From assembly GCA_046153945.1 (NCBI GenBank), contig JBJXFF010000201.1:4360-68359 (forward strand): a stretch of DNA of 64,000 bases, in the 5' to 3' direction. The translations under genes and the position numbers were made by a program. Under the pieces are notes generated by a model. That model was not told the DNA's origin, did no database searches, and saw only the letters and a program-made list of their open reading frames with translations. Position 1 is the first letter of the stretch. Each line of letters begins with the position of its first letter. This DNA is from Pirellulaceae bacterium (lineage in GTDB: Bacteria > Planctomycetota > Planctomycetia > Pirellulales > Pirellulaceae). Below are positions 13,628 through 63,441 of the stretch, in pieces.

Positions 13628-14155
13628 TTATGCCTGCTGCCGCTTGGCCGTGAATTCTCGCACAGCGTCGACGGGAATTGGAACTCCCTTAAGAATACCT
13701 TCGGCGACGATTTTGTCCTTCACCACGCCCTGAAAGTCGCAAACGATCATGCGTCCACGACGGACCTTGCTCATACGGCACATCACAATCAGCCGGTCGC
13801 CAGGGAGGACGCTATCGCGAAAGCGAACCCCCTCCAAACCCCCAAAGCCGACAATATCCGCTCCGAGCATGTCATACTTCTGGGTCACAAAGCTGCAAAG
13901 CTGGGCAATGGACTCCAGAATGACCACCCCTGGCATCAGGGGGAGGCCAGGCATATGCCCCCGGACCCAGAACTCCTTGTCCGTGACATCTTTATAACCG
14001 ACGCAAGAGACATCCTCCTGATTGGCATAAACCACGGCCGTCAGCTGCTCCATTTCGAAGCGCTGCGGATTGTATTTGCGGATTTCCTCCAGGTCAGCAA
14101 TGGGCCGGCTGAAGTCGATCTGCGAGAGGTCCACCAGGAACTCTTTGTCAGACAC
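13628..14155 (-). CDS. fabZ: 3-hydroxyacyl-ACP dehydratase FabZ family
   Basis: FWVRGHMPGLPLMPGVVILESIAQL hot-dog active-site motif. GTG start. 5-nt gap to trmB. Confidence 0.8.
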   Translation of the reverse strand: MSDKEFLVDLSQIDFSRPIADLEEIRKYNPQRFEMEQLTAVVYANQEDVSCVGYKDVTDKEFWVRGHMPGLPLMPGVVILESIAQLCSFVTQKYDMLGADIVGFGGLEGVRFRDSVLPGDRLIVMCRMSKVRRGRMIVCDFQGVVKDKIVAEGILKGVPIPVDAVREFTAKRQQA

Positions 14156-40459: not shown

Positions 40460-40484
40460 GGCCGGCAAGCCCAAGGTTGGGTGG

Positions 40485-40510: not shown

Positions 40511-40516
40511 AAACAG

Positions 40517-42400: not shown

Positions 42401-42432
42401 TACTTAGTACTAAGTACTCAGTACTGAGTACC
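42401..42432. promoter_or_regulatory. operator-like tandem palindromes, (AGTACTN)4
   Basis: TACTTAGTACTAAGTA and TACTCAGTACTGAGTA are overlapping perfect 16-bp palindromes. AGTACT recurs at 42406, 42413 and 42420, and AGTACC at 42427. The element lies in the divergent fadD/acyl-CoA dehydrogenase promoter region. A TTGACT hexamer follows at 42436. Confidence 0.6.
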
Positions 42433-42488
42433 GAGTTGACTCGCTTCTTCAATTTGCAATCTGACTTCTCCAATCCGCAATTCCCCCC

Positions 42489-44408
42489 ATGTCCACCACC
42501 TCCCCTCCGCCCCGCGCCGGCGATCCCTCCTCCGACCCCTCTTTCGCCGAAACCGCCATGCGCCTCGGCGGCAAGAGCGACGAGGAAGCCACGCGAACCG
42601 GGGCCATCGACAAGGCCGATGACGAAGTTGAGCGGCTGTTTGAGAAGCGGCGGCAGACGACGGCGAGCCCAGTGCATCGGGCGGTTTGGGACCGGGGCTT
42701 TCCCGTGGAGCTGTTTGATTCGGCGAATAAGAAGACGCCAGCCGACGTGCAGCAGGTGATGGATGCTTCGATTGCCGTCGTCGAGCGACATCGCAAGGCT
42801 GCAACGCTGCTGGATGAAAACGGCAAGACGCGTGAGTCTGTTTTGAAAGAGCTCGCCGCGGCGGGATATTGGAGCCTGCTCGTCGACCGCGAGTATGGCG
42901 GCAAGGGAGTTCCCTTCCGTTGCTTCGCGCCGTTCCTCACGCGAATGGCCCTCATCGACCCCACCATCGCCGGCCTGGCCAGCGTTCACGGCTGCATCGG
43001 CGCGGTGGATCCTGTCCGGACGTTCGGCAATGAAGAGCAGAAACGCCGCTACCTCCCCAAGCTGGCCAGTGGCGAGCGGCTGTCGGCCTTCGCGTTGACA
43101 GAGCCAGGGGCGGGAAGCGATTTGACCGCGCTCAAAACGAAAGCCGTCCTTCGCGGCGACACTTACTATGTCACCGGCGAAAAGCTGTTCATCACCAACG
43201 TCGTCCCCGGCCGCACGATTGGCCTGGTCTGCCTCATCGACGACAAGCCGGCGGTCCTGATCGCCGATTTGCCCGACCAGGAGAACGAACAGTTCGAGCT
43301 GGTGAAATACGGCCTGTACGCCCTCAAGCACACGCACAACCGGGGCATAAAGTTCAAGGACTTTCCTGTTCCCGCCGCGAATCTACTCAAAGTAGAAAAG
43401 GGGAACGGCCTGACCATCGCCTACCACGGCCTCAATCTCGGCCGCATCGCCCTCTGTGCCAACGCCGCCGGCACGATGCGGCTGATGATGGGGAGCATGA
43501 TTCCCTGGGGCAAGTTCCGCAAAACGTACGGCGAGGCGATTGAGAAGCGGGAACTGGTCCGCCGCCGCCTGGCCCGGCTGGCCGGCCTGATCGTCGGGTG
43601 CGACGCCCTGGTTGCCTGGTGCAGCACGCTCATCGACGAAGGCTACCGCGGCGAGATGGAGTGCGTCGTCGCCAAAATTTTCGGCAGCGAATCGCAAAAA
43701 GAAGCCGCCGTCGAGCTCTGCATGAAAACGCACGGCGGCCGCTCGTTCCTGCACGGCCACATCTTCGGCGACCACGTCCACGAGTACCTCGCCCCCTGCA
43801 TCTACGAAGGGGAAGGGGAGATGCTCGGCATGGCCTTTTTCAAATCGCTCGTCAAGCAGCACGGCGTGCAATACTTCGAGCCGGTCGGCAAAGCACTGCA
43901 AGCCGCCGGCATCAAGCATCCGAGCTTCGTGAACCCGGCCCACCTCTGGGCCCTCCGCAAAGCCGCCCCGCCGTATGCCATGTGGCTCATGCGGGAGAAG
44001 TTCACCTTCAAGCCGAGCGTGCAACTCCCTTCCATGCCGCCGCGCCTCCACGACCACGCCCAGTTCGCCAGCCGCGGCCTGCAGCGCCTGCCGCGGGAAA
44101 TCAGCGGCATGATGATGAAGCATCAACTCAAGCTCGCCGACCGCCAATGCCGCATGAGCGAGCTTTCATTGCGGGCCCAAAAACTCGTCGTCATGCTTTG
44201 CACTGCCCTCTACGCCGCCAAGCAAGACAACGAAGTGATCCGCTCAGCCGCCGATCTTCTCTGCCAGGATCTCACCCGCGAACTTACGGGTAGTCGTCCG
44301 AGTGATGGTTATTTCAAAGCGGCCAGCAAACTGGGGGAAACGATTGCGGATGGGGGTTTTCCGGGGATGGAGGGGGTGGAGGTGCCGGAGATTTTGATGA
44401 GGTATTAG
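42489..44408 (+). CDS. acyl-CoA dehydrogenase (long form with C-terminal extension)
   Basis: [21 protein letters not shown] and [10 protein letters not shown] motifs. 639 aa. Confidence 0.9.
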
Positions 44409-45489: not shown

Positions 45490-48400
45490 TCAACGAATAC
45501 CAACTATGCCCGCAGAAAACTGTTGGAGTCGATCGATTTCGCGCTGGAGGATTGAGTAGGCTTCGTCGGCGCCAGAAAGGTCGCCGGCTTTGCCCATGGC
45601 TTCCAGTCGTGATGCCGCCGCTACGGTCGAAGGAGCGGCAAAATAAGCTGCCGCGCCCTTGATCGTATGTGCCATTCGCCGCACCTCGAACATGTTTTGC
45701 TGCTGAAGGGCACTGCGCAGTGACAGCAGGTGCGCTCCAGATTCTTGGAAGAAGATTGCCAACAACTCTCGCAGCATCTCTTCGCTTCCTCCGACCAGAT
45801 TCACGGCAGCCTTCCAGTCCATGGCCGGTTGGCTTGGCGGGGTCTCGAAGGAATCTTGGGGAGAATGTTTCCGACCTTCGATGACTTCGAATAGCAAGGC
45901 TGGTTGGATTGGTTTGGTCAAATAGTCATCCATACCAGCATTCAGACACCGCTCGCGATCTCCTTTGAGCGCGTGAGCCGTCATCGCGACAATCGGAATA
46001 TGGCGGCCGGTCGATAATTCGTGCTGACGAATTGCCTGAGTCGCCTCAAAGCCGTCCATGTCCGGCATCTGGACGTCCATCAGCACGAGATCAAACGCAT
46101 CTCGCAGTGCCGCCTCCACGGCGTCACGTCCGTTGCTGACAACCACAACTTCGTGCCCGCGCTTTTCCAGAAACTCCCGGGCAACCCGTTGGTTGACGAG
46201 CCCGTCTTCGGCCAGCAAGATTCGCAGTGATCGACGGGATTCCGCAACCGGCGGCGACGCCGCCACGGCTGGATCGATCGACTGTTCCCTTGTGCTGAGG
46301 ACCCGGACGATCGCATTGCGCAAATCGGATTGCTTGACCGGTTTGATGAGGTATCGGGCAATTCCCAACTCCTGGCAGCGGGCCGAATTCTCCGTCATCC
46401 CGGCCGAAGAAAGCATGATCAACATGCAGTCTTGCAAATGTGGACGCTGACGAATCCGCTCCGCGAGCATAAAGCCGTCCATGTCCGGCATCATCACGTC
46501 TAAAAGCGCCAGGCGGAAAGGTTCTCCGCGAAGTGCCGCGTCGTCAAGCGCCGCGAGTGCTGCCGGCCCGCTCGCCGCCATGCTCGGCTGCATCCCCCAA
46601 TTCGTGAGCAAATCCTCGAGGATCCGCCGATTGGTCCGATTGTCATCCACCACCAGCACCGGCATGCCCGCCAGGCTCTCGGGGCTAATCCACGAATGCG
46701 TGGGCGAGCCCTGGGCGATTTCAAAGCGGACGGTAAAGTGGAATGCGCTCCCTTTGCCGGGCTCGCTCTCGACCCAGATGTTTCCCCCCATGAGCCGGAC
46801 TAGTTGTTTGGAAATCGTCAGACCCAGACCAGTGCCGCCGAAGCGGCGCGTCGTCGACGAGTCGGCCTGATTAAAGGCTTCAAAAATCTGCTGCTGCTTG
46901 TCTAGGGGAATGCCGATTCCGGTGTCGCTAACGACAAAGTGCAAATCGACGTGCGAATCTTCAAGCTCTTCGACCATGACGACGACGACGATTTCCCCCT
47001 GCTCGGTGAATTTAAGCGCGTTCCCCACCAGGTTGATGACGATTTGACGCAGTCGCCCCGGATCACCGATGAGAGTATCCGGCACATCGGGAGGCACGAG
47101 ATAAGTCAATTCCACACCCTTTTCTGCAGCCCGCAACCCAAAGGTTTGCATGGCATCTCCCAAGCTGTCGCGGAGCGGGAAATCAATGGTTTCCAGTTCC
47201 AGCTTGCCGGCCTCGACCTTGGAGAAGTCGAGAATGTCGTTAAGCAGCCGCAAGAGCGAATCAGCCGACTGCATGACTATGTTCAGATAGTCGCGCTGCT
47301 GATTGGTGAGAGTCGTCTGTAGGGCCAACTCCGCCATTCCCATAACACCATTCATGGGAGTACGGATCTCGTGGCTCATGTTGGCCAGGAAATCGCTCTT
47401 GGCCCGATTGGCATTCTCAGCCACTTCTTTCGCCAGACGCAGTTCGTCCTCGCTGCGGCGCAGCTCGGCTGCTGTCCGTTCCAATTCGGCGTTGGAAACC
47501 GCCAGTTCCCGCGCGCGGGCTTCGGCGGCGGCGGTCCGTTCGGCAACTCGCTGTTCGAGTGTTTCATTCAATCGCTGAAGTTCGGCGAATCCTTCGGCAT
47601 TTTCCAGGGCAGCGCCGGCAATTGTGGCAATGAACTCCGCCAGGCGCACGTCGTCGGCTTTGAATAGACCGCTGACATTGCGATGGTCGACGTAGAAGCA
47701 TCCCGCTGGTTTGCCGCGAACGAACACCGGCGCACAAAGAGCCGAGCGAACGCCGGCGAGCAAGGCTCCGTCTTCGTCGAATTGACCTTCCGAATAAACA
47801 ACGACTTTGCCCGTGGCTAGTGCGCGATCGGCCATGGCCCGACTGTATTCCGCCCGGTGGTCGCCGGCGACCATCGTTAGCTCTTCGGCGGCAGCGTCCC
47901 CCTGCAATTGAAGCAACAAGCAGCGTTCCCCTCGCAACAACCGGAGCGCCGCTTCTCGCACTTCTTTGAAGATGGTATCCCGCGACAATGCCGAGGCAAT
48001 GCGGCGACCCGCATCGAGGACCGTATCAAAACGGTCGACTAAAGAGAGCGTGGCTGTCTTCGCTTGCGCAGCCGGCTCCGGTTCGGCGGCCTCTCCGAGC
48101 GCAAAGTCCGCACCCAGCGCGCGCAGTGCCTGGCGGGCCTTCGTCAAGTCCTTCTGAGCCTCCGGCCAGCCCACCTCCTTGCCGACGCGACCCCGAGCGA
48201 GCAACGTCTGAGCATGCTCGAATCGGGCACCCTGACGTTCCGCCACTGCCAGGCTTTCGTCCAGGTATTGTCTCGCCTTTCGAGTTGAACCCTGCATTGC
48301 CGCGACGAGGCCGGCCTCCCGCAGCGCATGTGGCAAGTCGTTTTGAAACGTCCGAGCGACCTTCAGGGCTTTTCCCACCACCTTGCTGGCTTGTTTCAAC

Positions 48401-51400
48401 AGCGTCTTTCGACGCTCCGGCGCCCAGCCGGAGATCATCTCCGTCTGACGACGCAGGGCAGTAGCGATCCACGAGCGAATGGGCTGGACATAGGCGTTAT
48501 TAACCCCCGCCTTTTCCACAAGCTGTTGCGCGCGCTGAAATGCATCAACCGCGTCTTCAACCTTGTCTCGCAGGAAAAGACACACGCCATCCGCCAACAA
48601 CACTTGAGCGCTTACTTGAACATCCTTGCGAATACGTTGCAGCTCGATTTCGAGAATATCAGCCGGAATCTTGCCCCCCGTCGCCTGTGCCCATACATCC
48701 AAGCTGAACCCGGATGCTTGGGCGTCTCCCAGTTCGACGCCAGAGAAGTGAATCTGCCTGGCCAGATCCTGGCTGGCCTTCAAATCGCCCAGCCGAAACA
48801 GGCTGAGTTCCATATGGACACGCGCAACATTGACCTCCCATAGGTCACCCGCTCGCTCCAGAACTCTTACAGCTTCGCGGCATTTTTCGATGCACTCTTC
48901 AAAGTGGGAGGCTCCGTAAAGAACGACGCCATAGAAATTGAGAGCCTGACCCTGTCCCCACAAATCACCAAGCGACTTGTAGATTGCCAACGACTTCTGT
49001 GCATACACAATTCCCCGGCTGAAATAGGCGACCAAACCCATCACGGGGGCATGAATAGAATAGGCTTGAGCCAGTTCCAAAGTGGGAGGATAGCGCTCGG
49101 CCAGATTCATGCCGCGCAAGTGAGTCCAGAGACAAGGAATTTGACCTCGGCCGAACCAATAGGCATAGGCCAATCGATTGTGCAGACGAATGACGAGGAG
49201 TTGTCTGTCGGCGTCCACAAGTTTCTTGCGGCCCACGAAGAGACCTGGCAGCGCCGAGTGAAGTACCTGGACAAGTGCTTCCCAAAGGAGTAGAACCCAG
49301 AACACGACCGGCCATTTCGGCACCCGCTGGCCGAGCAATTCCAAGGCCCGCTCAATGGCCTCGATGGCCGTTTGCATGTCGCCTTGTTTGAAGGCTAGCT
49401 CCCCGCGCTTGCCCTCGATTTTCCCCTTGGCGACGTCTCCAACGGCTAGTTCTCTGGCCGTCTGGGCAATCTCCGCGGCTTCGTCATAACGGCCGCGAAG
49501 CATTAGCACGTCGCCGAGTCCTTCGGCAATCCGAAAACGGATAGTCTGGTCAGCGGAAGCGCTGCGCTCCGCGATGCGGTACTGCTCTTCAGCAAACTCA
49601 AGGGCATGATGAATTCGGGCATCCTCCGCGGCCGCCAGCGCATACGGCAACGCCCGTTGGCTTTCTCCGGCTGCGTCGAAGTGATAGGCCAGATCATAGA
49701 CCCGATTGGGATCCTCGGCTTCGAGATCAACGGCGGCGCGCAGATGCAATTCTCGACGCTCGGCTTCCGGCAGCCGGGCGAGCAAGGTTTGGCGAAGCTT
49801 GTCGTGAATGAAGGCGCAGCGGTCTCCCGCTGATTTGGACCAGACAATGTGCCGTTGCTGCGCCTCGCGCAGAGCCGCCATCGCCTGCGCCGAAGTCTGC
49901 GCTGCCAGCTTCGACGCTGTGAACAGGTCAAACTCTTTGCCCAAAACCGCTCCGACCGAAAGCAGTTTGATGGTGGTTTCCGGTAACAGTTCAATTCGGC
50001 GGGCGAGGAACGCGGCGGCGTGACGCGAAGACTGCACATCGGCCAGGGCCATAGGCTCTACTTGCCAGCCCCTCTGTATTGGCACCAAAGCGCCGGACTC
50101 CACAAGTCCGCGCAAAGCAGCCGCCGCCATGAACGGGCTTCCCTCCGCCAGTCGCTCGATGACTCCGACCGCCTCATCCGGCAATGGCCCGGCCATCGAC
50201 TCCACAAGTTTGCGGACACTGGAAGGGTGAAACGCGGGAAGCTTCAAATGCTCAGAGGAGGTCAGCTCTCGCAAGGGATGGCTGGAATGGACCTCTTCCG
50301 AACGAAAGGCAGCGATTAAGAGAATGGGACACTCCCCGGATCTGGAACGGCGCTGCCAATTACTGAGAACCTTGAGCGTTAATTGGTCCGCCCATTGGCA
50401 GTCATCCAGCAGCACGAGCGCGGGACGACCGGTGGAACCGAGCGCATCCAGCAGCGAGGTCAACGCTTGAACGCTTCGTGCTTCGGCAAAGGATTCGGGA
50501 CCGAGCGGCGCATTCGCGCACGAGCCAAAAAGCGCTGCCAATTCCGGCAGCGCGGAACATGCTGCTTCCAGTTGATCAGCCAGTCCAATTCTAAGTTTCT
50601 CTTCCACGCCCGGCTCGAGTCGTGCCGTTGTGACCACTGCTTCTGCCACGCCGGTCAAAAGTTGAAACGGAAGTTGAGTGGCCTTGTCGAGGCCATGCCC
50701 GCGCAAGATCCAAGCCCCCTGCTGGGCCCCGCGCTGCGCAAATTCCGCGAGCAGCCGGCTCTTGCCGCCGCCAGACTCGGCTTCCAACAGGACCAGACCG
50801 GGCTGGCCGGATTGTGCGAGTTCTAACTGGGAGTGGAGCGCCTTCAATTCCTGCCCGCGACCGACGAACGCTGGTTCGGTCAGCGTGCGCCTGCGATCAT
50901 TCAAGCCGACAACCAGGGCCGGCTCGGACTCACCTCGCTGCAAGGCCTCGGCGATCACCGCCAGATCGGTGATCACCGCCTCCGCGGATTGATAGCGGTC
51001 GCGCGGATCCTTGCGCAACAGTCGCTGAATGACTTCGTCCAGAACTCGCGGCACAGGCAAACCCAAGCCGCGCAATTCGGGCGGTGGCAACGTCATGTGC
51101 TGCCGCAGAATTTCTCCGACACTATTTCCTTGAAACGGAGGCCGGCCGGCGAGAGACTCAAAGAGCACAATGCCGACCGCATACAGATCGGAACATGCCG
51201 TGACCTCCTGGTCGAGCAGGCCTGCTCCTTCGGGAGACAGATATTGCGCGGCATCTGCCCAATTCTCTCGAATGTTCGCCTCCAGGTCCGCCGTGCGAGT
51301 CAGGCCAAAGTCAACAAGCGTGACTTCACGCACCGGGCCTTCGGCATTGACAATTACATTGGCTGGCTTGACGTTGCGGTGCAGCACGTCTTTGGCATGG

Positions 51401-51792
51401 GCTGCCCGCAGGGCGGTCAGCAGGGAGCGGCCAACCAGCAGCGAGTCCAATACGGAGAGAGGTTTTTGCCGCAATCGCTCCCGCAATGAGATACCGGGAG
51501 TGAAGCGCATGACTCGGTAGAATTGATCTGCTTCCGAGGCGAAGTCAAGCAACGGAGCCGATTCCCCAATCTTGATTTGCGAGAGAATCTGGGCTTCATG
51601 CTCCACCCGCATGCGCACCGAGGCGGAGAAAGAAGACATCGCCACCGACTTGATCACGACCGTTGCATCTCGGGTAAGATCCGACGCCAGCACCGTTTCC
51701 GCACCATCGGCCTCCTTCAGTTGGCGCAGAACCCGGTAGCGGCCGCCGATTAGTCGCCCGTCCGCGGACAAACTCGTGTGGGCATCGGTCAT
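45490..51792 (-). CDS. multidomain sensor: degenerate Ser/Thr kinase - P-loop NTPase (AAA_16/STAND-like) - TPR-like - GAF - hybrid histidine kinase - REC - REC - HPt
   Basis: Start ATG 51792 with GAGGTG upstream. Walker [11 protein letters not shown] and Walker [11 protein letters not shown]-box [17 protein letters not shown] and [10 protein letters not shown]. Two receivers ([22 protein letters not shown]). HPt motif [11 protein letters not shown]. Confidence 0.9.
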
Positions 51793-51878
51793 GCCCACCT
51801 CTTGGCGGTTTGCGTCTGTGTTTCCTGGAACATTGCAATACCTCGAACAACGAACTGTTGGTCCGACTCCGTGGACAT

Positions 51879-54800
51879 CTACACAACAACCTGGCCCTCG
51901 GCAAATTGCTGGAAATGGATCGCGATACCCTGCAGAATAGCGGTGATCCGTTCGCGGTTGCGATTCAGGAACCAATGATCTCCGTCAAATTCAATGAGTT
52001 CGAAGCCGCCGTCCGTGTGCTGGGCCCACTCCTGGATTTCATCGCGGTAGACCATATCATCCTGCCTGGCGGCAAAGGCTGTAATGGGGCAATTCAATGG
52101 CGTGTTGGGGTGATACCGGTAGCCCCTCAGCAGCGGATAGTCTCGTCGCATCAGCGGCAAGATGGACTTGATGAATTCCGGATCGTCCACATAGCGCGAA
52201 AGCGAAATCAGATACTCTGGGCTATTATCGGCAATCATCGCCTTAAGCAGCGTGTCTCGCTTCTGTAGAAGGTGAACTAAATGAGGCGGCAGTGTCCCCG
52301 AGACTACATAGTGAGCAGGCTCTTTGTGGTGGCTCTCGCGCAAGCGGCGAATGACTTCACTCGCCACGATACCCCCGTAACTATGGCCCCAAATCACCAC
52401 GGGGCGATCGAACAGCGGCAACAGTTGCGGAACGATGAGTTCGACCAATTGTTCCAGGCTTTCCACCACCGGCTCGCCCATTCGATTTTCGCGCCCGGGT
52501 GTTTGGATGGCGAGAATGTCGCAGTCCTCCGGCGGATTGAGCAGGAAACCCGTGAACAGGGAAGCACCGACTCCCATGGAATGAAAACAAATTAACCGAT
52601 ACGAGGAGTTCTCGGCTCCGCGCCCGCGAATCAGCCAAGGGTTCAGGATTTGAACTCCCTCCAAATCCGCGAGTGTAAATGTAGGTGAACCAACTGAAGT
52701 ACGCTGGCGGGTAGCGATGTCGGAAGTTCCGCTGCTCTCTAGTTGCGAGAGAAGGTCCGCCGCCAAAGTGGAGATGCTTGGCCCCTTGAGCAGCTTGATA
52801 AGCGGCACGTTAATGTCCAGCAATCGTGTAATCCACACCTGCAGATCCGTAAGCATCAAAGAATCCAGACCGAGGTTGTCAATCGATGCGTCCGCGTCGA
52901 GCTTTTCCGGAAGTGTATCCAGAATTCTGGCCAGTTTTTCCGACAATTCCTGTTGCAATCGCTCTTGCTGTTGTCCAGGCTCCAATTCCAGGAGGGCACT
53001 GCGCAGGCTGGAATTTCGGGGACGGTTGCTTCGAGAAAGAGCCGCATCGCTCAAATGGTCAACAAACCGCGCATCTCGAAGCAGGTGAGGATACGCGGTG
53101 CGGAAGCGACCCCAGTCGAATCGCGACGTCATCCGCTGGGTGGCTTGCTGAATCAGGGCGGCTTCGATTTTTCCCAGCACGTCGGCCAGCGGCATGACGA
53201 GCATGCCCTGACTTGCGAGCAATCCGATAATGTCTTGAACGTCGTTCTCGGCTTTGGACATCCCCGCGTAGGACCCCAAAACGCCAAGATTGACGGAGGT
53301 TGCGGGGAGCCCTTGTTGGCGGCGAAATTCGGCCAGGGAATCTTGAAAGTAGTTGGCGGCGGCATAGTTCAACTGTCCAACCAGGCCAAGCACCGACGAA
53401 ATGGAAGAGAGCATGAGGAAGAAGTCGAGGTCTACTCCAGCCGCAAGGGCCGCCGCGTGCAAATTCCAGGCACCTTGCGCCTTGGGGCCGAATACCCGCT
53501 GGAAACGGGCCATGTCCATCTTCGGTAGGGAAGCGTCGTCGAGTAGGGCTGCGCCATGGACGACGCCGGCCAAGGGGGGCAACTCGACCCGGATGCGCTC
53601 GATGAGTCGGTCAATCGCGCTGCGATCGGCAACGTCCCCATGCGCCAATAGAATTTGAACTCCTTGAGACTGCATGCTCTCCACGGCCACCCGATCTGCA
53701 TCACTCTTCGGGCCGCTGCGGCTGAGCAACACCAAGTGGCGCGCTCCGCGGTCGGCCATCCACTTCGCGACCTCCAGACCAAAACCGCTCGCACCTCCGG
53801 AAATCAAATAGCAACGATCAGAACGAAAGGCGGCGCTCTGCGGTGGCAACGTCCGAACTCGCTCCTCTTCCATGTTCATCACGATCTTGCCGTGATAAGC
53901 CGCCCGGGTCATGAATTTCATGGCCTCGGGAAGTTTGGAAATCGGAAACTCGGTGATTTCATGCGGAGCAAGTTCGCCCCTTTCGAATAGGGCAACCACC
54001 TCCGTCATTACGCGCCGATGCAACTCCGGCCTTTGCATCGCTAGCCGGTCGACATCGACAACAAAGTAAGAAACGTTGTCCCCAAGCCGTTCCAGACTCA
54101 GTTTGCTATTGCGATAGATATCCGACTTGCCTAGCTCGACAAAACGGCCGAACGGTGCGAGGCACTTCAGGCTTTGGGTGATGAAGCGGCCCGTCAGGGA
54201 ATTCAGAACAACGTCCACGCCGCATCCGCCCGTAACTTCCCTGACATGATTGTAAAAGTCGAGGGAACGTGAGTCGAACACATGCTCGACTCCACTTTGA
54301 CGCAGGAAAGCCCGCTTTTCCTTGGTCCCCGCCGTGACAATCACCTTCGCGCCGGCCCGCTGCGCCAATTGAATCGCCGCGCCCCCAACCCCGCCAGCGG
54401 CAGAATGAATCAGAACCGTTTCCCCGCACTGCAGGCGCGCCAGATGGCATAGCGAATACCAGGCCGTGATGTAAACGACGGGAATTGCCGCCGCCTGTGA
54501 CGGCGTTAACTGCTTTGGTTTGTGCGCCACACAATGGCCCGGAGTAGTAACCCGCCCGCTAAAGCCGTCGGCAACGCGGGCGATCACTTCATCGCCCACC
54601 TGAACATGCCGAACCAGTTGGCCCGTATTCAGGACACGGCCCGCGACTTCCAATCCCAGGCGGTCGCATGCCAGCCCGCCAGAGACGGCACTTGCCGGCA
54701 GCAGGCCCATCGCATTCATGACATCTTTGAAGTTCAAGGCGGCTGCCTGAACGGCTATTTCCACGTCGTTCACCCCCAGTTGTGCCAGTGGAGTCCGACG

Positions 54801-57800
54801 GAAGACGATTTGATCGAGGGCACCCGGCACACTCACATCGGCTCGATAAGCGCCGCCAACTCCCGCTTCCTCGGAGGTTGCCATCTCCTCGGCACTTTCC
54901 CGATCCACGGCAATCAACTGCCTGACAAACCGCTTTGCACCGCGAATCGCGATTTCCGATTCGTCTTGATCACGGCGGATGTAGAGCAACTCTCCCACCA
55001 GCGCGTCCAGCTCTTCCAGGGAGCTTGATGCGTTCAGGTCAATCACCGTGAGCGGAATATTAGGACATTCGTTGTTGATGACGCGTGCCATGCCGTGCAG
55101 AATCGCTTGTCCTAAGTCGAGTTGCCAGTCGCCCGAGACGCCGGCCGCACTGCTGGTGACGACACACAGGCGAGATACTCCTTCGCGCTTGTGCAATGTT
55201 TGAGCCAGATGCATGAGCGACGGGACATAGGGACAGTGGTCAAGTCCATTCCAGGCAGGATCGACCATGGTCAGCCCTGATGCGAAAACAATCAGCGTGC
55301 GCCGGTCGAGCGCCACGTCGGCAAGCAATTCGTCGAACGATCTTTGTGGACTGATCCGAAAAACTCGCGGTCGAATCCCTTCTGCAGTCAGCCTCATCAC
55401 AAGTTCGTCCACCTGAGCCGACGGGTCGGCGATCAGCACAGCATTGGTATAGTCATTGATTCGGAGGTGCAACTCAGCATCGCGAGGTGCCGGCAACCAG
55501 CGGTATTCGTAACAACCTTCGTACAATGCGTCCGACTGATGCGAACCTGCTCCCATCAGCCGTTTACAGGTCAAACCGAGTACCTCGGCCACCAGTTCGC
55601 CGGCCTCATCAAAGAGTAAAGTATCCGAACAGAGATACTCTTTGTCGTTGCGGGTGGCACGAACGTAGCACCAGACACTTTGCGTGGGCCGGCGGTGGAA
55701 CCTGACCCGCTCAATGCGGTACGGCAAGTAGATTCGATCCGGTTCGCCGTTGCGATGGACATCGGCGAACACAACATGCAAGCAGGCGTCGAGAAGCGCC
55801 GGGTGAACGGCCAAGGGCTGCGATTCAGGGACCAAATCATCTGATAGCCGCACTCGGGCGAGCATTTCATGCTCCTGGTGCCACAGTTCCTGAATGCAAC
55901 GAAACTTCTCTCCATACCCCAGCCCCGCGGCTGCAATCGTCGCGTAAAACGGCTCGACGGGGAGCACATCAGCAGCCCGAAATTGCTGTCGAATCTCGTC
56001 GAGCGAAGCGGCTGATTTTTCAAAGCGGTCATGCACCGTGTTGATGCGGCCCGTGGAGTGCTTCGACCATGGCGATTCCGGCAGTGCGTCGGCAGGCCGG
56101 GTGCAGATGGCATAGTCCCCTTCCCCGGAAACAATTTCGAGCCTCACTTCGAGCGGGTGACGGCTGTTTGCGGGAAGAATCAACGGGGAATCGAAATGGA
56201 GGTTCTCCAGGAACACCGACTCATGGCGAAATTGCTCGCTGGCCACGGCCCAGGCCAATTCCAGGTGTCCGGTCGCTGGGAAGACAATCTCGCCGTCGAC
56301 TTGATGATCGCGGAGATACGGGAACTTTTGCGGGTCGAGCGTCGCTTCCCAGACGGCCAAGCCATTTTCGGTGACCATTTGCGTTTGACGCTTCAGGAAC
56401 GGATGCTCGAAGCGCCCCCGGCGCAGTTCCGCCGCCGCGGGGGCTTCAAACCAATGCCGGCTGTGCTGCCAGGCATAGGTGGGCAACCGGACATAGCGCC
56501 TGCCGGAACCAAACATCAACTCGGTGTTTGGCTGCAGCCCGCGCGCCGCAAGTTGCGCCAGGCTTTGGAGGAACACGGTCACTTCCTCTTCCCGCCGGGT
56601 CATGGAGGGAGCAATCATCGCATCGGCATCGAGTTTCTTGAACAGAGCCTCGGAGCCGCTGACCAGCACGGGATGAGGGCCGATTTCGACAAACGTATCA
56701 AAGTTGTGCTGCAACATCGTTCCCAGTGCGCTGGTAAACAGCACCGGCAGCCGTGCATTCCGATACCAATAATCAGGTCCCAGGTGCCTGCCGCTTTCGC
56801 ATTGGCCGGTGACGGTCGAATACAGCGGCGTGAATGTCTCGACCCCCTGAATATCGTCGAGCGCCTCGCGCATCATCTCCTTGATCGGCTCCATGTGATG
56901 GCTGTGATACGCCACCTGAACCCGAACCGGTCGGTTGAAGACACCGCGACCTTCCAGCATCCTGGCAATCTGCTCCAGCGGCTCCGGGTCGCCGGACAAG
57001 GTGAGCATTTCTGGACCATTGACCGCGCCGATCGAAACCCGGCCTTCATAGCCCTTGATGAGTGCGCGAGCTTCTTCCAGTTCCAGGCCAACCGCCAGCA
57101 TGGCCCCTTTGCCGGAAGCGAGATTCTGGGCCTGGGAACGATGGAAAATTACCTGGACCGCCTGCTCGAGCGTTAATGCTCCGGCAGCGTAGCCGGCGGC
57201 GACCTCGCCAATCGAGTGACCCACGAATCCATCGGGCCGGATTCCGTAATGCTCGTAGAGCTTTACGAGTGCGATTTGGATGGCCATGACCGCGGGCTGG
57301 ACCACGACCGTGTCGTGAATCCTGGAGTCTTGCTCATCCTTCTGAAGTTCCACAAGCAGCGACCAGCCGGCGAGCCTTTGAAATGCCGCATCGATCTCTT
57401 CCATCCAGTGGCGGAAGACGGGTTCTTGCTGCATCAATTGCCGCCCCATTCCCGCCCACTGTCCTCCCTGGCCCGAAAAGACGAACGCCAGCTTCGGCCT
57501 TTTCTTCTTGGTGATCGTCCTCGTCAGGGTTGCGGAATCGACTTGCCCGTCGGAATACTTCCGCAGCCTTTCCTCGATGTCCTTAGAGGACTCACCAACA
57601 ATCGCGAGCAGATGCGGATAGTGGCTGCGCCGAGTGAAGGCTGAAAAGGCGATGTCCTCAAGCCGCTGCTCAGTGCTGCTCAAGAAGTCCGCATGCCGCA
57701 GCGCAAGTGTCCTTAAGGAATCGCGATGAGCCGCACTGAGGACATAGAGCTTCTCGCTTTTGGAAACTTCCCCCTTGGTCGCTGCATGTCCACTTTCTCC

Positions 57801-59219
57801 AGAACTCGCCGAAGACAACGATTGCAACACCACATGGGCGTTTGTCCCTCCCGCTCCGAATGAATTCACACCTACGTTCCAAGGGCGGCCGGTCGAGGGA
57901 AGTGGCGTGGGGCTGGTGGGAACCTCCAGATGGCTGTTGTCCCAATCGATTTCTGGATTCGGTTCATGGAAGTGCAGGTTCGGCGGGACAATGCCGTGCT
58001 GAGCGGTCAAAGCGGCCTTAATGAAACTGGCAATCCCCGAGGCACCTTCCAAGTGCCCCAAGTTCGTCTTCACCGAGCCCATCAAGCACCGCTCACCCTC
58101 CGCGCGATTGCGGCCGAGGACGGCACCCAAAGAGAGGCTTTCGACGGGGTCCCCTACGCGGGTCCCCGTGCCGTGGGCTTCGACGAAATTCACAGTAAGT
58201 GGATCGATTTCCGCGTCGGCATAGACCGCTTCCAAAAGCTCAATCTGCGAAACGACGTTGGGGACTGTGAATCCCTCGGGCAGATAGCCATCCTGATTCA
58301 CGGCCGAGCCGCGCACCACGGCGTAGATCGCGTCTCCATCGGCCAGCGCTTTGCTGAGCGGCTTGAGAATGACCACTCCCGCTCCTTCGCCGCGAACATA
58401 ACCATTGGCGGAGGCGTCAAAAGCTTTGCAATACTGATCCGGATTCAAAAAGCCGGCCTTGGACAACATCATGGACGATTCCGGCCTGAGCATCACGCTG
58501 ACGCCGCCGGCAATCGCCAGGTCCGCTTCCCCCCCCCACAGGCTGCGACAAGCCAGGTGGACCGCCACCAGCGAGCTGGAGCAAGCCGTATCGACCGTAA
58601 TGCTGGGACCTTTCAGATTGAAGTCGTAGGAGATGCGGTTCGCCAGCGGCGAAACGGCGGTTCCCATGGCCACATACGGATTGATCTCGTCGCGCTGCTC
58701 GCTGGCGGTCTGCATGCAGAGATAGTCGTACATGAATGACCCGACGAAGACGGACGTCCGCGTGCCGTCGAGCTGGTCACGCCGCAAGCCGGCATCTTCC
58801 ATCGCTTCATGAGTCACTTCCAGAAGCAAGCGCTGCTGCGGGTCGATCCGCTGGGCTTCGGTCGGAAAGTACCCAAAGAACTCGGCATCGAACATGTCGA
58901 CGCCGTCGATGAAGCCGCCCTTGGCGTTCCGAATGTAGCCTGATTTTTCCGGGTTGGTGTCGTGAAATCGCGAGTGTTTCCAGCGATTCTCCGGCACGCT
59001 CCGGATGGCATTGATCCCGCGGAGCAAAGCGTCCCAGAAAACCGGGGGCGAATTGAGCCCGCCAGGAAGTCGGCAGCCGATGCCGATGACAGCCAGGGGT
59101 TCGCGCTGCGGGGAATTCAAGGGAGGATCTAAATTCCGCGGAGCAAGACTTGATGGCAAGGGAGACTCCTCGCGGATTTTTGGGACAACGAGTGAACCTC
59201 GTTCAATCGCCTTGGGCAC
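51879..59219 (-). CDS. single-module fully reducing type I polyketide/fatty-acid synthase, KS-AT-DH-(psiKR)-ER-KR-ACP-TE
   Basis: GTG start with GGGGAGG 4 nt upstream. DTACSSS, EAHGTGT and NLGH (KS). GHSIGE (AT). [10 protein letters not shown] (DH). [13 protein letters not shown] (ER). ISGGASGFG and NYAAAN (KR). LGLDSL (ACP). GHSYGG and GDH (TE). Confidence 0.95.
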
Positions 59220-59307
59220 GCAACCTCCCCACCGTCCGTGGCTCTACAAAATTATCAAGAATCAGCCGAAAGGAGGGGAGATAATCGGACTTCCCTGGGA
59301 GAAGTCT

Positions 59308-59441: not shown

Positions 59442-59582
59442 CTATTTCTCGCAGCAGGTCGCATAGGAGCAGCAGACCATCTCGCAGCAGCCGTGGTCCT
59501 TGCCGAATGGCGAAGAGATGCAGCAGGGGCTGCTGTTAGGCGCGATGATGCCAATAACCGGGATCGCGGCTGGAATGCGCAA
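59442..59582 (-). CDS. candidate Cys-rich micro-ORF (46 aa from TTG, or 12 aa from ATG 59480)
   Basis: The frame reads ...IIAPNSSPCCISSPFGKDHGCCEMVCCSYATCCEK*. Four TGCTGC hexamers are all in one frame, and GC3 is very high. There is no ATG for the long form, and it overlaps the parE 3' end. Confidence 0.3.
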   Translation of the reverse strand: MRIPAAIPVIGIIAPNSSPCCISSPFGKDHGCCEMVCCSYATCCEK

Positions 59583-59829
59583 GTGCGGCGATCATAATCT
59601 TGTCGGGCAAGATACGGTATAAGATGCTATCGGGATATCGGCGCAAATTGTAGTAGCGGTGGCGTTTATCCCCGATGGGAAACGATTCGGGTGCTGCTTC
59701 GATCCTTTGCAATGCGACTTCCACGGCGGCTTCAAATCCGGCAGCCGCCTGCGGACTCCGCTGGAGATACCAATTCAAGGCATCCGTATAGTCTTCTTCG
59801 GCACCACCAAGAAACAATGCTTCAGCCAC
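59536..59829 (-). CDS. parE: type II toxin, RelE/ParE family
   Basis: 97 aa. AEEDYTDALNWY...PESFPIG...YRILPDKIMIAALAHSSRDP matches the ParE pattern. GTG start overlaps the antitoxin gene by 8 nt. Confidence 0.8.
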   Translation of the reverse strand: MAEALFLGGAEEDYTDALNWYLQRSPQAAAGFEAAVEVALQRIEAAPESFPIGDKRHRYYNLRRYPDSILYRILPDKIMIAALAHSSRDPGYWHHRA

Positions 59830-60061
59830 GGAGTTTGGCTCCCTGGCGCGCTCGCTCCTTCACTTCTTGCCAAGGTCGAGCCGAAGCGGCACCGGCATCG
59901 TATTCCATGCTGCGGCGCTCCGCCTCAGCCAGCCAGGCGTCGTCAAACGGACGCACACGCCGTTCGTCGAGCACCGAAACAAGCGCGGCCGCGAATGCCA
60001 ATTGTTCGTCTTCGGGAAGGGCAAGAGCAGTCTTCAAGAGTTCATCGGCAGCTTGTGACAT
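59822..60061 (-). CDS. addiction-module antitoxin (TIGR02574-like)
   Basis: 79 aa. LLKTALALPEDEQLAFAAALVSVLD...DDAWLAEAERRSMEYDAG is the typical pattern of this antitoxin family. Confidence 0.8.
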   Translation of the reverse strand: MSQAADELLKTALALPEDEQLAFAAALVSVLDERRVRPFDDAWLAEAERRSMEYDAGAASARPWQEVKERARQGAKLRG

Positions 60062-60134
60062 GACGTTACTCCGTACTTCAAGTATAGCATTCGCCCTCGG
60101 TACGGCGATTCGGCTGGGTCCGATGGGAGTTTAC

Positions 60135-61589
60135 TCAAGCCTTGTAATTCCACTCCCGAATATCGACAAAGTGCCCGGCGACCGCGGCTGCCGCGGCCAT
60201 GGCGGGGGAGACGAGGTGGGTGCGGCCGTTTTTGCCTTGGCGGCCTTCGAAGTTGCGGTTGCTGGTGCTGGCGCAGCGCTCGCCGGGCTCCAGTTTGTCA
60301 GGATTCATTGCCAGGCACATGCTGCAGCCCGCCTCGCGCCATTCGAAGCCGGCTTCCTTGAAGATTTTATCGAGCCCCTCGGCTTCGGCTTCCTTCTTCA
60401 CCTGTCCACTGCCGGGGACGACCATCGCGCTGACGTGACCGGAAACCTTGTGCCCCTTCACGACGGCGGCGGCGGCCCGCAGATCGGCAATTCGTCCATT
60501 CGTGCAAGAGCCGATGAAGACGCGGTTGACGTCCACGCTCGTCAGCGGAACTCCCGGAGTGAGCCCCATATATTCGAGCGCCCGCTCCGCCGTTTTGCGG
60601 TCGCTTTCGTCGGTGATTTCGCTCGGATTGGGGACCTTGGCGGTCACCGGCGCGACCTGGCCGGGATTGGTTCCCCAGGTGACCTGCGGCGAAATATCGG
60701 CAGCTTTGAAGACGAGGGACTTGTCGTACTTCGCGCCGGCGTCCGTCGGCAGTTCCTTCCAGCGAGCGACGGCTTTGTCGAAGTCGGCCCCCTTGGGGGC
60801 GAATTCTCGTCCCTTCACGTAGTCGTAAGTTGTTTGGTCGGGGGCAATCATGCCGGCCCGCGCGCCCGCTTCGATGGTCATGTTGCAGACGGTCATTCGC
60901 TCTTCCATCGTCAGGCCGCGAACCGCCTCACCCGTGTATTCAATGACATAGCCGGTGCCGCCGTCGGTGGTGATCTGGCCGATGAGGTACAGAATCAAGT
61001 CCTTGGCCGTGACGCCGCGGGGGAGCTTGCCTTCCACCCGCAGTTCCATCGTCTTGGGCAAATGCTGGAGCAAAGTTTGAGTGGCCAGCACATGTTCGAC
61101 TTCGCTGGTGCCGATGCCGAAGGCGAGCGCGCCGAAGGCTCCGTGCGTGGCGGTGTGGCTGTCGCCGCAGACGATGGTCATCCCCGGCTGCGTAAGGCCG
61201 AGTTCCGGGCCGATGACGTGGACAATCCCCTGCTGGATGCTGTCCATGTCGTAGAGCTTGATGCCGAACTCCTTGCAGTTGTTCCGGAGCGTCTGCACCT
61301 GTTGCAGCGAGATCGGGTCGGTGATCGGCAGGCTCCGGTCGGTCGTCGGAATGTTGTGGTCCGGCGTCGCCACCGTCAGCCCCGGCCGCCGCACCTTTCG
61401 CCCCGCCAGCCGCAGCCCCTCAAAGGCCTGGGCACTCGTCACTTCGTGGACGAGCTGCAAATCGATATACAGCACCGTCGGCTTGCCGGCGGGAGCGTCA
61501 ACAACATGGGCGTCCCAGATCTTCTGGAACATCGTGCGGGGGGAAGCAGGCATGAGAATAGCGTCGGTCAGAGGCGGGGAACGGCTCAT
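60135..61589 (-). CDS. leuC: 3-isopropylmalate dehydratase large subunit
   Basis: [32 protein letters not shown] and [10 protein letters not shown] Fe-S cluster ligand motifs. The likely true start is ATG 61532 ([11 protein letters not shown]). Confidence 0.95.
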
Positions 61590-61678
61590 TCGCCGAGATC
61601 AACTCGGCAGCCGCAATGGCTCCATTTTAACGCAAAGTCGCTAAGGCGCTAAGGCACAAAGAATGGGAGAAGTAAGCA

Positions 61679-61698: not shown

Positions 61699-63441
61699 TT
61701 ACGAGATGGCCATCTCGTTGTCTTTCGCCGTCGTGCTATCCTTTTTCAACCACCAACTCCGGGCGTGGTCGCGGCTCCAGGTGCCGTGGTGTTCGCAGTC
61801 TTCGAGGGCGTTGGCCAATTCGGCGGCGGATTGATAGCGGTCGTCGGGATTTTTGGCCAGGCACCGCATCACGATGGCTTCCAAGTCAAGCGGCACATCC
61901 TCCCGATATTGCGAGAGCGGTGGCACTGGGTCGTGGGCGTGGCTGATGAGGACCTTGATTGGCTTTTCATCTTCAAAGGGGGCATGGCCGGAGAGCAGGT
62001 AGTACAGGACTCCCCCGAGCGAATAAATGTCGCTTCGTGGGTCCGGCTCCTTGTCGCCGGCAGCTTGTTCCGGAGACATGTAGAGCGGCGAGCCGGTGAT
62101 CGTGCCGTCAGCAGTTAGCTGAGCCGTGTCTAAATCCGAAAGCGGCTTGGCAAGGCCGAAGTCGAGAAGCTTGGCCACGTCGTAGAACCCGCCCCGCACC
62201 GCGGCGAACAGGTTCGCCGGCTTGAGGTCGCGGTGGAGCAGTCCCAGCTCGTGGGCTTCCTGCAAGGCATCGCAGGCCTGCCGCACCAGGTGGATAGCCC
62301 TGGCGGCTGGCATCGGGCCGAACCGTTTCACGATTTCGGCGAGGTTCATGCCGGGGAGATATTCCATCACGTAATAGAACGTCCCGTCCTCGGCCCGGCC
62401 GTAGTCGAAAATATCGATGCTGTTCCAGTGCGAAAGCTTGGCGGTGGCCTGCACCTCGCGCTCGAAGCGAGCGAGTACCTTGGGGTCCCCCGCCTTCTCC
62501 GGCCGGATCACCTTGATCGCGCAGGGCCGCTTCATCAATTGATGCTCGGCGAGATACACCTCCCCCATGCCGCCGGAGCCGATCAGCTTCTTGAGCCGAT
62601 ATTGGCCGAGCTGCTTGGCTTGATACGCCTGCGTCTGCAAACTGTTGATAGTGTAAACGCCAAAGACCGCGCCTACGGAGGCGACCCCCATCACCAGGAT
62701 CATTTCCACCAGCGTTCCTGGGTTGATGCTCATGAACTCCAGCAGCCGGCCATTCACAATCATTCCCAGCAAGGTGACGAGAATCGGCAGCGAGCCAATC
62801 GTGCCAATGACAACCGCCGCTCGCTTCCAAGTATTCGGAATAAAGATGGCGTAGGTATAGATGCAGAGCAGCCAGGCGGGAGCGACGCCGGGGTGAAAGC
62901 CGAAGCTGTTCACAAAGACGTTGGCCTTGGCAAACTGCATCAGCATGAAAAACGCCGCCGGCACTCCGCAGGCAACGAGCTCCATCAGCCGCAACTGCCA
63001 GGTGGCGAAAGCCTGCTTGGAGCAGAGTGCAAAGCCGATGCAGCCAAGGACGAGCGTGGCGATGATATGCCAAATGAACGTCGGGAGCGCCAGCGGATTG
63101 TCCGTCAAATTCAACGAAAAAATGTGCCAGACCAAAAACACGGCGAACGCGACAAACGTCAGCAGCGAAGCGGACCGAACGCGGGAGCGCAGCAGATTCT
63201 GTACTTCACCAGATAGTTCTGAGTCGGTCCCTTCCACCAGATGCACTCGGCAGGGCGCATGGCACGAATCTGTCCGGTCCGAAGATGAGTCGGACGGGGC
63301 TTCCAGCGTGATGTCCGCGGGACCGAGACTGGCTGGCACATGTCTCGCCGTTTTGGACCCGGCTGAACTGTCGTCCAAGGAATCGCTCTCGGCGAAAAGG
63401 TGGGCAGGGGGAAACCGGCGAATGTTACGTTCCTTCATCAT
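61699..63441 (-). CDS. polytopic membrane Ser/Thr protein kinase
   Basis: About 6 N-terminal TM helices, then GSGGMGEVY, AIKVIR, HRDLKPANLF, DFGLAK and GSPLYMSPE. Confidence 0.9.
   Translation of the reverse strand: MMKERNIRRFPPAHLFAESDSLDDSSAGSKTARHVPASLGPADITLEAPSDSSSDRTDSCHAPCRVHLVEGTDSELSGEVQNLLRSRVRSASLLTFVAFAVFLVWHIFSLNLTDNPLALPTFIWHIIATLVLGCIGFALCSKQAFATWQLRLMELVACGVPAAFFMLMQFAKANVFVNSFGFHPGVAPAWLLCIYTYAIFIPNTWKRAAVVIGTIGSLPILVTLLGMIVNGRLLEFMSINPGTLVEMILVMGVASVGAVFGVYTINSLQTQAYQAKQLGQYRLKKLIGSGGMGEVYLAEHQLMKRPCAIKVIRPEKAGDPKVLARFEREVQATAKLSHWNSIDIFDYGRAEDGTFYYVMEYLPGMNLAEIVKRFGPMPAARAIHLVRQACDALQEAHELGLLHRDLKPANLFAAVRGGFYDVAKLLDFGLAKPLSDLDTAQLTADGTITGSPLYMSPEQAAGDKEPDPRSDIYSLGGVLYYLLSGHAPFEDEKPIKVLISHAHDPVPPLSQYREDVPLDLEAIVMRCLAKNPDDRYQSAAELANALEDCEHHGTWSRDHARSWWLKKDSTTAKDNEMAIS

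Follow-up and report, generated by a model that had tools for sequence, protein, structure and literature searches.

A MAS-like mono-modular polyketide synthase with a fused type II thioesterase is paired with a giant sensor kinase in Planctomycetota

A 64,000-nucleotide stretch of Pirellulaceae DNA (assembly GCA_046153945.1, contig JBJXFF010000201.1, forward-strand positions 4,360 to 68,359; hereafter the window) carries a type I polyketide synthase (PKS) gene of a single module, which is followed on the same strand by the gene of a giant sensor kinase. We consider it fairly probable that this synthase stands alone as a fully reducing cis-AT type I PKS, probably of iterative action, and serves as a dedicated "secondary" fatty-acid synthase (FAS), and that it forms a two-gene unit with the sensor. 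With this, a widespread orphan PKS family, found throughout one bacterial class, gains an identity, namely a build like that of mycocerosic acid synthase (MAS), a malonyl-type acyltransferase (AT), a fused type II thioesterase (TEII) and a signalling partner, and a nameless genome-mining match becomes a two-gene unit that is testable in cultured Roseimaritima ulvae.

The association of synthase and sensor was assessed in a PKS-first sample of 21 loci, in each of which the PKS shares 62% identity or more and no less than 3 kb of sequence is available downstream of it. An orthologous giant kinase (58-76% identity) was found downstream and on the same strand in 15 of the 21 loci, lying either within a few hundred bp of the PKS or behind one inserted shorter paralogue, and three further loci showed the short paralogue next and then the contig end. 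Other than the sensor, none of the neighbours of the window PKS recurred beside the PKS in 34 related loci. A metagenome scan with the whole kinase as query drew generic hybrid histidine kinases, matched at residues ~1400-2100 only, and these were reused as a negative control; no type I PKS was present in any of the 80 loci (1.03 Mb) centred on such unrelated hybrid histidine kinases. By a database-wide proxy, 17 of 24 PKS clusters (contigs of at least 40 kb) had a kinase cluster whose longest contig is identical in size. Reciprocally, look-ups that began from orthologous kinases without any PKS match on a contig of equal size revealed a PKS directly upstream in all three cases. A PAS-containing kinase paralogue of 58% identity had no PKS nearby, and the link is therefore specific to one orthologous kinase group.

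The complete genome of R. ulvae has the order kinase P0203, 101 bp, PKS P0073, 87 bp, kinase P0237, and a related metagenome-assembled genome (MAG) has a P0071-like PKS (84%) followed by a P0203-type kinase (73%). Given this pairing in the MAG, R. ulvae most likely carries the order PKS1-K1-PKS2-K2, with P0071 placed by the MAG, and so two cognate tandem pairs whose PKSs share 65% and whose kinases share 53% identity. Two duplicated pairs of this kind are consistent with a sensor matched to its synthase. Supportively, over 16 loci (120 pairs, non-independent) the pairwise identities of PKS and kinase co-varied with r=0.79, and the N-terminal half of the kinase was nearly as conserved as the PKS (mean identities 66% vs 70%).

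Several points weigh against a functional unit. Adjacency is not obligatory, as three loci of the PKS-first sample (L004, L013 and L017) have unrelated downstream genes, encoding RTX/cadherin-like, subtilase and SNF2 helicase proteins, and homologues of 45-52% identity in other phyla are mostly without a kinase neighbour. The mirror-tree correlation would be equally expected from plain vertical co-inheritance. Moreover, planctomycete genomes are rich in Ser/Thr kinases, of which the window alone holds three, so that proximity of "a kinase" by itself means little and the argument rests on the orthology of the specific kinase. The three loci without the kinase, the other neighbours of distant homologues and the relatedness of the sampled loci, which makes the synteny counts non-independent, would suit an ordinary orphan secondary-metabolite PKS whose kinase neighbour was kept by descent with no functional link. 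We regard this as improbable, because the pair is kept in MAGs with Planctomycetaceae, Pirellulaceae and Gemmataceae labels at just 66-75% PKS identity while the genes that flank it, past the kinase as well as at the opposite end, are different in each locus, because it survives insertion of a paralogue between its two genes, and because the duplication occurred as a pair. A verrucomicrobial PKS (L038, 49% identity) also abuts a 1691-aa protein that has the same kinase architecture, is 24% identical to the window kinase (E 5e-33) and lies in a different, convergent orientation; this is suggestive only as further evidence of pairing.

Three observations on the sampled loci are added here. The locus often has as its third member the shorter paralogue of the kinase N-terminal half (kinase-AAA16-TPR, ~1240 aa, 39-53% identity, in either orientation), which is absent from the window. 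The pair-bearing loci L016, L018 and L031 come from MAGs titled "Candidatus Kuenenia", labels that may be unreliable; their PKSs are 69-74% identical to that of the window. In L121 (2112-9324), L032 (10001-17389), L018, L020 and L022 the PKS orthologue is frameshifted into two or three ORFs (open reading frames), by either sequencing error or decay.

The synthase ORF of the window (51879..59219, minus strand) is uninterrupted and gives 2446 aa when counted from the GTG at 59219, the numbering used here for residues. The true start is most likely the TTG 20 codons further on, at 59159, which is preceded at 6 nt by GAGGAG and would give a product of 2426 aa, because the N-termini of orthologues (MPPxLDPPN) align at residue 21 and the upstream DNA is conserved; the DNA directly upstream of residue 21 is conserved among loci, and an indel there disrupts any upstream reading frame. 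A Pfam scan of the translated ORF recovered all expected domains in order and well over cut-offs, including the KS-AT linker, and none was inactive or missing; a second module, a loading domain and a methyltransferase were not found in it. The initial annotation of the window had described a single ORF with KS, AT, DH, psi-KR, ER, KR, ACP and TE, as one fully reducing module ending in a thioesterase, and both the ORF and the Pfam order agree with it. Each of the catalytic residues it named (C213, H349, H389, S669, R694, VAYH, Y1952, S2120, S2280 and H2415) was found as placed, with GHSIGE around S669, VAYH at 769-772 and the first DH motif at 972-981; to these we add a second DH motif, D1144xxxH1147. 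Its statement that the catalytic motifs are intact likewise held when 109 full-length relatives (44-80% identity) were aligned with MAFFT: the catalytic positions are invariant or nearly so, as are the GGVG of the ER, the Asp of the KR LDD motif (D1895, B-type) and the LGLDS of the ACP. Because of this conservation, all eight parts of the synthase are under selection.

The same annotation had called the enzyme animal-FAS-like. The linear order and the ACP-TE end support that description, but the KS, the modifying region, the fold, the linker and the thioesterase family are not of FAS type, and the label was replaced by "MAS-like, malonyl-type, TEII-fused mono-modular PKS". For the whole synthase, the best solved relative was Mycobacterium tuberculosis MAS, which aligned in one piece over residues 40-1984 (981 bits), whereas pig FAS reached 698 bits split in two pieces. 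Scored alone, the KS gave 441 bits with CurL, 405 with PikA1, 385 with MAS, 377 with Pks13, 343 with Dictyostelium Pks16, 329 with LovB and ~300 with animal FAS, and by sequence it is nearest to cis-AT modular PKSs. Using phmmer, the DH-to-KR region (1066 aa) aligned end to end (residues 5-1049) solely with MAS (393 bits) and the MAS-like PKS 5bp4 (388 bits), whereas animal FAS aligned to it from the ER onward only. The region was modelled with AlphaFold2 from a 41-sequence family alignment (mean pLDDT 86.7, pTM 0.70), and the best Foldseek match to the model was again 5bp4 (E 2.5e-88, 1077 aligned columns vs a 1089-residue target, 30% identity); M. tuberculosis MAS was also among the best matches, human FAS scored ~1e-64, and FAS alignments required ~100-200 extra columns. 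Across the family the DH-to-ER linker measures 233-285 aa (median 248) and the median distance spanned from KS to ACP is 2129 aa; the linker is therefore too short for a pseudo-methyltransferase plus a pseudo-KR, and the pseudo-methyltransferase of the animal enzyme is lacking. As a sequence query by itself, the linker found no PDB match, and it was placed via the larger fragment and the fold search.

The comparison with MAS and MAS-like enzymes (Mas, Pks2, Pks5; PDB 5bp4, 9d2y/9d2z/9d30) covers the same single KS-AT-DH-psiKR-ER-KR-ACP module at equal length, and these are the top full-length sequence match, the top fold match and the only solved proteins that align through the entire modifying region. 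They differ from the window synthase in their AT, which is methylmalonyl-type (GHSQGE, YASH) in MAS and malonyl-type (GHSIGE, VAYH) here, and in release, as MAS has no thioesterase and off-loads via a partner acyltransferase whereas the window synthase carries one in cis. Identity in the modifying region is only ~30%, the phylum is another, and the window synthase is without PapA, FadD or Mmpl neighbours; no PapA-like gene was found among the scanned ORFs of the window. The NCBIfam model Pks2_ls1_myc spans the full synthase length with 1190.7 bits, below its equivalog cut-off of 2400. On these comparisons, the synthase is built like MAS, yet is the orthologue of no mycobacterial synthase.

Metazoan type I FAS (PDB 2vz8, 8vf7) shares the order ending in ACP-TE and the malonyl extender, and full reduction and free-acid release would be common to both. 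The window KS keeps the PKS-type DPQQR/HGTGT, unlike the DPQ[I/V]R of FAS KSs (motif rule in PMC3908369). The window synthase further differs from FAS, which aligns from the ER only, in lacking a pseudo-methyltransferase between DH and pseudo-KR, and its thioesterase belongs to the TEII and not to the FAS TE-I family. Among other bacterial mono-modular enzymes, the Sup synthase carries a methyltransferase. Mono-modular bacterial PKS/FAS enzymes already known comprise the MAS-like ones, SupA, SwfA and WcbR/RkpA (PMC3908369). Swf/Sup-type PKSs resemble the window synthase in having one KS-AT-DH-ER-KR-ACP module that is thought to act iteratively and so yield an acyl chain, and they are orphan or lipid-linked (PMC3908369). 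By the published description, Swf is set apart by HATGT, DPQ[I/V]R, a GHSSGE/IAFH AT and a separate reductase-sulfotransferase partner, and for none of Sup, Swf, WcbR and RkpA does that paper describe a fused TEII or a kinase partner (PMC3908369).

The initial annotation had taken the AT motif to suggest malonyl-CoA, and alignment with the ATs of DEBS together with the family consensus points the same way. At the position of YASH/HAFH the window AT has VAYH, with an aromatic residue at the third position, and the active Ser is followed by Ile instead of Gln; the consensus of the 109 relatives is V-[A/P]-[Y/F]-H and GHSIGE. A VAYH-like motif and an Ile after the active Ser are established features of malonyl specificity in ATs, and an unbranched chain is therefore predicted.

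The built-in thioesterase noted in that annotation is present, but it belongs to the type II family and not to the TE-I family of FAS and PKS. Its best scores were 115 bits with 6vap and 114 with RifR, followed by human OLAH/TE2 (94), M. tuberculosis TesA (93), RedJ (92), SrfD (67) and YbtT (50), whereas pikromycin TE-I gave 26 bits only, and no FAS TE domain was among the solved chains matching at E<=0.001. D2387 aligns with the catalytic Asp of RifR and completes the triad with S2280 and H2415, of which the Ser and His are invariant in the 109 relatives; in all of these the thioesterase is fused behind the ACP, over a linker of ~45 residues. Type II thioesterases such as RifR, TesA, RedJ, SrfD, YbtT and OLAH have the same GHSxG Ser and Asp/His triad (PF00975), but are free-standing and act in trans, whereas the window domain is fused and the sole release function. 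OLAH, TesA and RedJ release fatty acyl products. The window domain is thus a normally free-standing editing/release enzyme in fusion with the ACP, from which release of a free acid would be expected.

Directly downstream of the synthase, the ORF at 45490..51975 (minus strand) encodes no second PKS module but the sensor kinase, with a probable start at ATG 51792. The initial annotation had found neither a second or loading module nor a phosphopantetheinyl transferase (PPTase) in the window, as did our scan of its ORFs, but had overlooked this conserved, co-oriented partner 86 bp away. Pfam assigned to the partner Pkinase (92-334 in ORF numbering), AAA_16, TPR, GAF (1330-1458), HisKA (1525-1590), HATPase_c (1637-1752), two receiver domains and Hpt. 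No convincing transmembrane segment was found in it. Its histidine-kinase, receiver and Hpt motifs are intact, and its C-terminal half resembles BarA/TorS/ArcB-type phosphorelay sensors, below every NCBIfam cut-off. The 86-bp spacer contains no terminator-like site, and sigma-70 promoter and terminator scans gave nothing informative.

The partner's N-terminal Pkinase domain raises the possibility of a post-translational control, in which it would phosphorylate Ser/Thr residues of the synthase as an on/off switch, much as mycobacterial Ser/Thr kinases control FAS-II enzymes by phosphorylation. HRD is kept in 11 of 15 orthologues, and DFG and the VAIK-type Lys are mostly kept. We nevertheless hold such a switch to be quite improbable. 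The catalytic Asp is replaced by Asn (HRN) in the window and by HRN (L014 and L019) or HRG (L011) in three other orthologues, a Gly-rich loop is present in no orthologue, and the strongly conserved, intact part of the partner is the histidine-kinase phosphorelay; the intact phosphorelay and the degenerate kinase-like domain together argue against a main link by which the PKS is simply phosphorylated on Ser/Thr. The kinase-like domain, which looks like a pseudokinase in the making, may have a scaffold role.

By architecture, the partner is like the HstK/cbSTKIII dual kinases of cyanobacteria, which have an N-terminal Ser/Thr kinase domain, a GAF domain and a C-terminal histidine kinase (PMC2176072). 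It differs from them in adding an AAA16 STAND ATPase with TPR, two receiver domains and Hpt, in its degenerate kinase-like domain and in its fixed adjacency to a PKS. A heterocyst glycolipid made via a PKS requires two HstK kinases, Pkn30 and Pkn44 (Shi et al., 2007, cited in PMC4365693), which is a functional precedent for a kinase-PKS link by analogy and no evidence of homology.

As judged from its domains, the AT of the window synthase would load malonyl units on the single ACP, and the KS would condense them onto a starter, which may be acetyl or else a fatty acyl group supplied by primary metabolism. Each beta-keto group would then be reduced to methylene by the B-type KR, the DH and the ER, and the fused type II-like thioesterase would hydrolyse the acyl-S-ACP to a free, unbranched, largely saturated acid. 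The chemistry is probably plain, and a fatty acid with a straight, largely saturated chain, set free as the acid, is the likeliest product; a specialised long-chain lipid, as initially proposed, is plausible. Synthase and sensor would be co-transcribed and, because they have been inherited, duplicated and retained together, would act in one pathway, with the sensor either controlling production or use of the lipid or sensing the lipid itself. On the chemical side, counterweights are that product, starter and chain length are not readable from sequence, that iterative use is deduced solely from the single module plus the thioesterase, and that activation of the synthase, with no PPTase among the scanned ORFs of the window, depends on a gene elsewhere in the genome.

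The MAS-like build also suggests an elongase, which would add several C2 units to primers from the type II FAS and yield very long chains, for example C26-C32 (omega-1)-hydroxy or chlorinated fatty acids. The closest solved relatives, MAS and MAS-like PKSs, elongate long acyl primers, the synthase has no loading domain, and a type II FAS is present (fabZ). Planctomycete lipids of fitting kinds exist as well: Telmatocola and Zavarzinella contain C26-C32 (omega-1)-OH fatty acids (PMC3327967), and the chlorinated fatty acids of Rhodopirellula baltica and Alienimonas chondri, with alichondrichlorin, have no assigned biosynthetic genes (PMC12078418, PMC11848864). We regard the elongase as possible but doubtful. 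Beside the PKS there is no conserved fatty acyl-AMP ligase, the AMP-binding gene of the window (40517-42226) not being syntenic in other loci, and no hydroxylase or halogenase is conserved adjoining the planctomycete PKS genes. Furthermore, the PKS family occurs widely among MAGs of Pirellulaceae and Planctomycetaceae, whereas the hydroxy acids are reported for Gemmataceae strains only (PMC3327967). By present data the synthase is tied to neither the (omega-1)-hydroxy nor the chlorinated fatty acids, although its family could connect to such planctomycete lipids that lack genes.

The adjacency and shared orientation of a synthase and a sensor kinase would also suit a signal synthase with its cognate receptor, that is, a self-contained lipid signalling cassette with a logic like that of RpfF/RpfC for DSF or CqsA/CqsS for CAI-1, the signal being bound via the GAF domain or the TPR. 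A sensor with a small-molecule-binding-type GAF and without a convincing membrane segment, the diverged tandem pairs of R. ulvae (65% and 53% identity), which would be expected for sensors matched to their own synthases, and a thioesterase that predicts a free acid able to diffuse are consistent with this reading. Ligand binding by the sensor is, however, a prediction only, a 2,400-residue fully reducing synthase would be a costly signal maker, and a cytoplasmic sensor suits intracellular sensing at least equally to cell-to-cell signalling; the automatic UniRef name "RpfC" on P0237 reflects the generic hybrid-kinase architecture only. We consider a signal pair unlikely. Its extended form, in which such a cassette would operate across Planctomycetia, the STAND/GAF hybrid kinase binding the fatty-acid-type product and relaying the signal, with the paralogous cassettes of R. 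ulvae as separate channels, is rather unlikely as well; if true, it would be the first defined chemical signalling system in the phylum and the first TEII-fused megasynthase as a signal synthase. Under the favoured reading, a secondary fatty-acid synthase in a two-gene unit with its sensor, a fatty-acid-type enzyme would be coupled to a sensor of 2,100 residues, and a regulatory arrangement of that sort is unusual for such an enzyme.

The PKS itself is of a known kind. Mono-modular PKSs were noted in R. baltica in 2007, and most papers on planctomycete genomes count type I PKS clusters. Planctomycete type I PKSs are assigned no product in the reviews and species descriptions of 2024-2026, and reviews of 2025 list five compound classes only for Planctomycetota, none of them tied to a type I PKS gene. 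The literature searched mentioned neither the fused TEII nor the pairing of PKS and kinase, and both appear undescribed.

Planctomycetota commonly carry PKSs of the same architecture (~2400-2480 aa, 62-80% identity), and such PKSs are also present, with 44-54% identity, in Verrucomicrobiota, Bacteroidota and other groups. Neighbours of the distant homologues include a PPTase and an unrelated GAF protein (Catalinimonas, L037), an FAD oxidoreductase/DUF2855 protein (L039) and a TamB-POTRA-Omp85 fusion. The GAF protein behind PKS and PPTase in Catalinimonas was considered as a kinase relative and rejected, as it is not specifically related to the GAF region of the kinase. The fusion, downstream of a PKS homologue of 52% identity in L035/L036 (19380-26051, plus strand), is a single 2223-aa protein with TamB, POTRA and Omp85. 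The FAD monooxygenase-like genes beside the PKS in L038 (8680-10029, plus strand) and L039 (17418-19889, plus strand, fused to DUF2855) show faint halogenase similarity, far below family cut-offs.

Table 1. Coordinates of the synthase, its partner and further features (window positions unless a locus is named; residues of the synthase are numbered from the GTG at 59219)
Feature	Position	Strand	Basis or remarks
Type I PKS/FAS-like synthase gene, KS-AT-DH-psiKR-ER-KR-ACP-TEII	51879..59159	minus	ORF open to GTG 59219; Pfam, motifs, orthologue alignment
KS (ketoacyl-synt N and C), residues 40-418	57966..59102	minus	C213/H349/H389; DPQQR and HGTGT intact
AT (Acyl_transf_1), residues 579-894	56538..57485	minus	S669/R694/H772; GHSIGE and VAYH, malonyl-CoA predicted
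DH (PKS_DH_N/PS-DH), residues 939-1222	55554..56405	minus	H972 in HxxxGxxxxP; D1144xxxH
DH-to-ER linker, pseudo-KR, residues 1225-1463	54831..55547	minus	without pseudo-methyltransferase; sequence alignment, linker length, fold search
ER, residues 1464-1783 (Pfam ADH_N/ADH_zinc_N 1484-1780)	53871..54830	minus	NADPH motif HSAAGGVG
KR, residues 1804-1981	53277..53810	minus	GGxSGFG; LDD (D1895, B-type); Y1952
ACP, residues 2083-2163 (Pfam PP-binding 2091-2154)	52731..52973	minus	phosphopantetheine site S2120 in LGLDS
C-terminal thioesterase, type II (RifR/TesA/OLAH/RedJ-like), fused in cis (Pfam Thioesterase 2208-2427)	51939..52598	minus	S2280/D2387/H2415
Spacer of 86 bp, synthase stop to partner start	51793..51878	minus	GAGGTGG ahead of ATG
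Partner sensor gene, 2100 aa, soluble: kinase-like, AAA16 (STAND) ATPase, TPR, GAF, HisKA-HATPase, REC, REC, Hpt	45490..51792	minus	Pfam
Ser/Thr-kinase-like domain of partner	50974..51702	minus	HRN for HRD, no Gly-rich loop; probably catalytically dead in the window
GAF domain of partner, candidate small-molecule-binding module	47602..47988	minus	Pfam
Hybrid histidine-kinase phosphorelay of partner	45520..47403	minus	H1474 in HEIRTP; N, G1 and G2 boxes; two REC with DxxMPxMDG; Hpt HTIKG
5' leader of synthase gene	59160..59225	minus	nucleotide-conserved in ~10 loci: C[A/G]CTCGTTGTCCC..AAATC..GAGGAG
Shorter paralogue of the kinase N-terminal half, other loci	L001 17523-21251; L123 16623-20369		between PKS and kinase in L010, L016, L019 and L023; just after the PKS in L008, L020, L021 and L022
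Antitoxin PF09720, "addiction module component", 79 aa	59823-60061	minus	overlaps the 97-aa ParE-family toxin at 59536-59829

The leader type of the window synthase, C[A/G]CTCGTTGTCCC..AAATC..GAGGAG, was also found in L001, L002, L006, L009, L014, L016, L022, L023 and L031, and a second leader type, GAAAAAGGCTnTCCACTGGTCGCCGTAGGAG, occurs in ~8 other loci. No riboswitch or known RNA was matched in Rfam at E<=1 in leader or spacer, and RNAalifold on the conserved leader gave a 4-bp anti-Shine-Dalgarno pairing only, weak and with no covariation.

Elsewhere in the window, the fabZ gene reported initially was recovered as a FabA-like-domain protein (13628..14155, minus strand) 38 kb from the PKS. 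A group of fatty-acid/aldehyde-metabolism type (34342-44408), which includes a creatininase-family protein, lies 1-11 kb past the kinase and is not conserved beside the PKS elsewhere. The other members of this group, namely the AMP-binding gene, an acyl-CoA dehydrogenase (42489-44408), an aldehyde dehydrogenase, an MFS transporter and an FAD oxidoreductase, were rejected as pathway partners, as they are absent beside the PKS in the 34 related loci. Upstream of the PKS, a long plus-strand ORF (59691-61652) was rejected as a gene, since it has no Pfam match and the real gene there is a minus-strand aconitase-family (LeuC-like) one; between this gene and the PKS lies a type II toxin-antitoxin pair (59536-60061, minus strand). 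Two more proteins that bear a Ser/Thr-kinase domain are encoded in the window, one a kinase-TPR protein of 834 aa (1012-3516, plus strand) and the other a 580-aa protein with a C-terminal kinase domain (61699-63441, minus strand), 2.5 kb upstream of the PKS. Also on the minus strand are a PAP2 phosphatase (4929-5684), a neutral/alkaline ceramidase-like protein matched in its N-terminal domain only (21924-23393) and an HTTM-domain protein (26454-27506).

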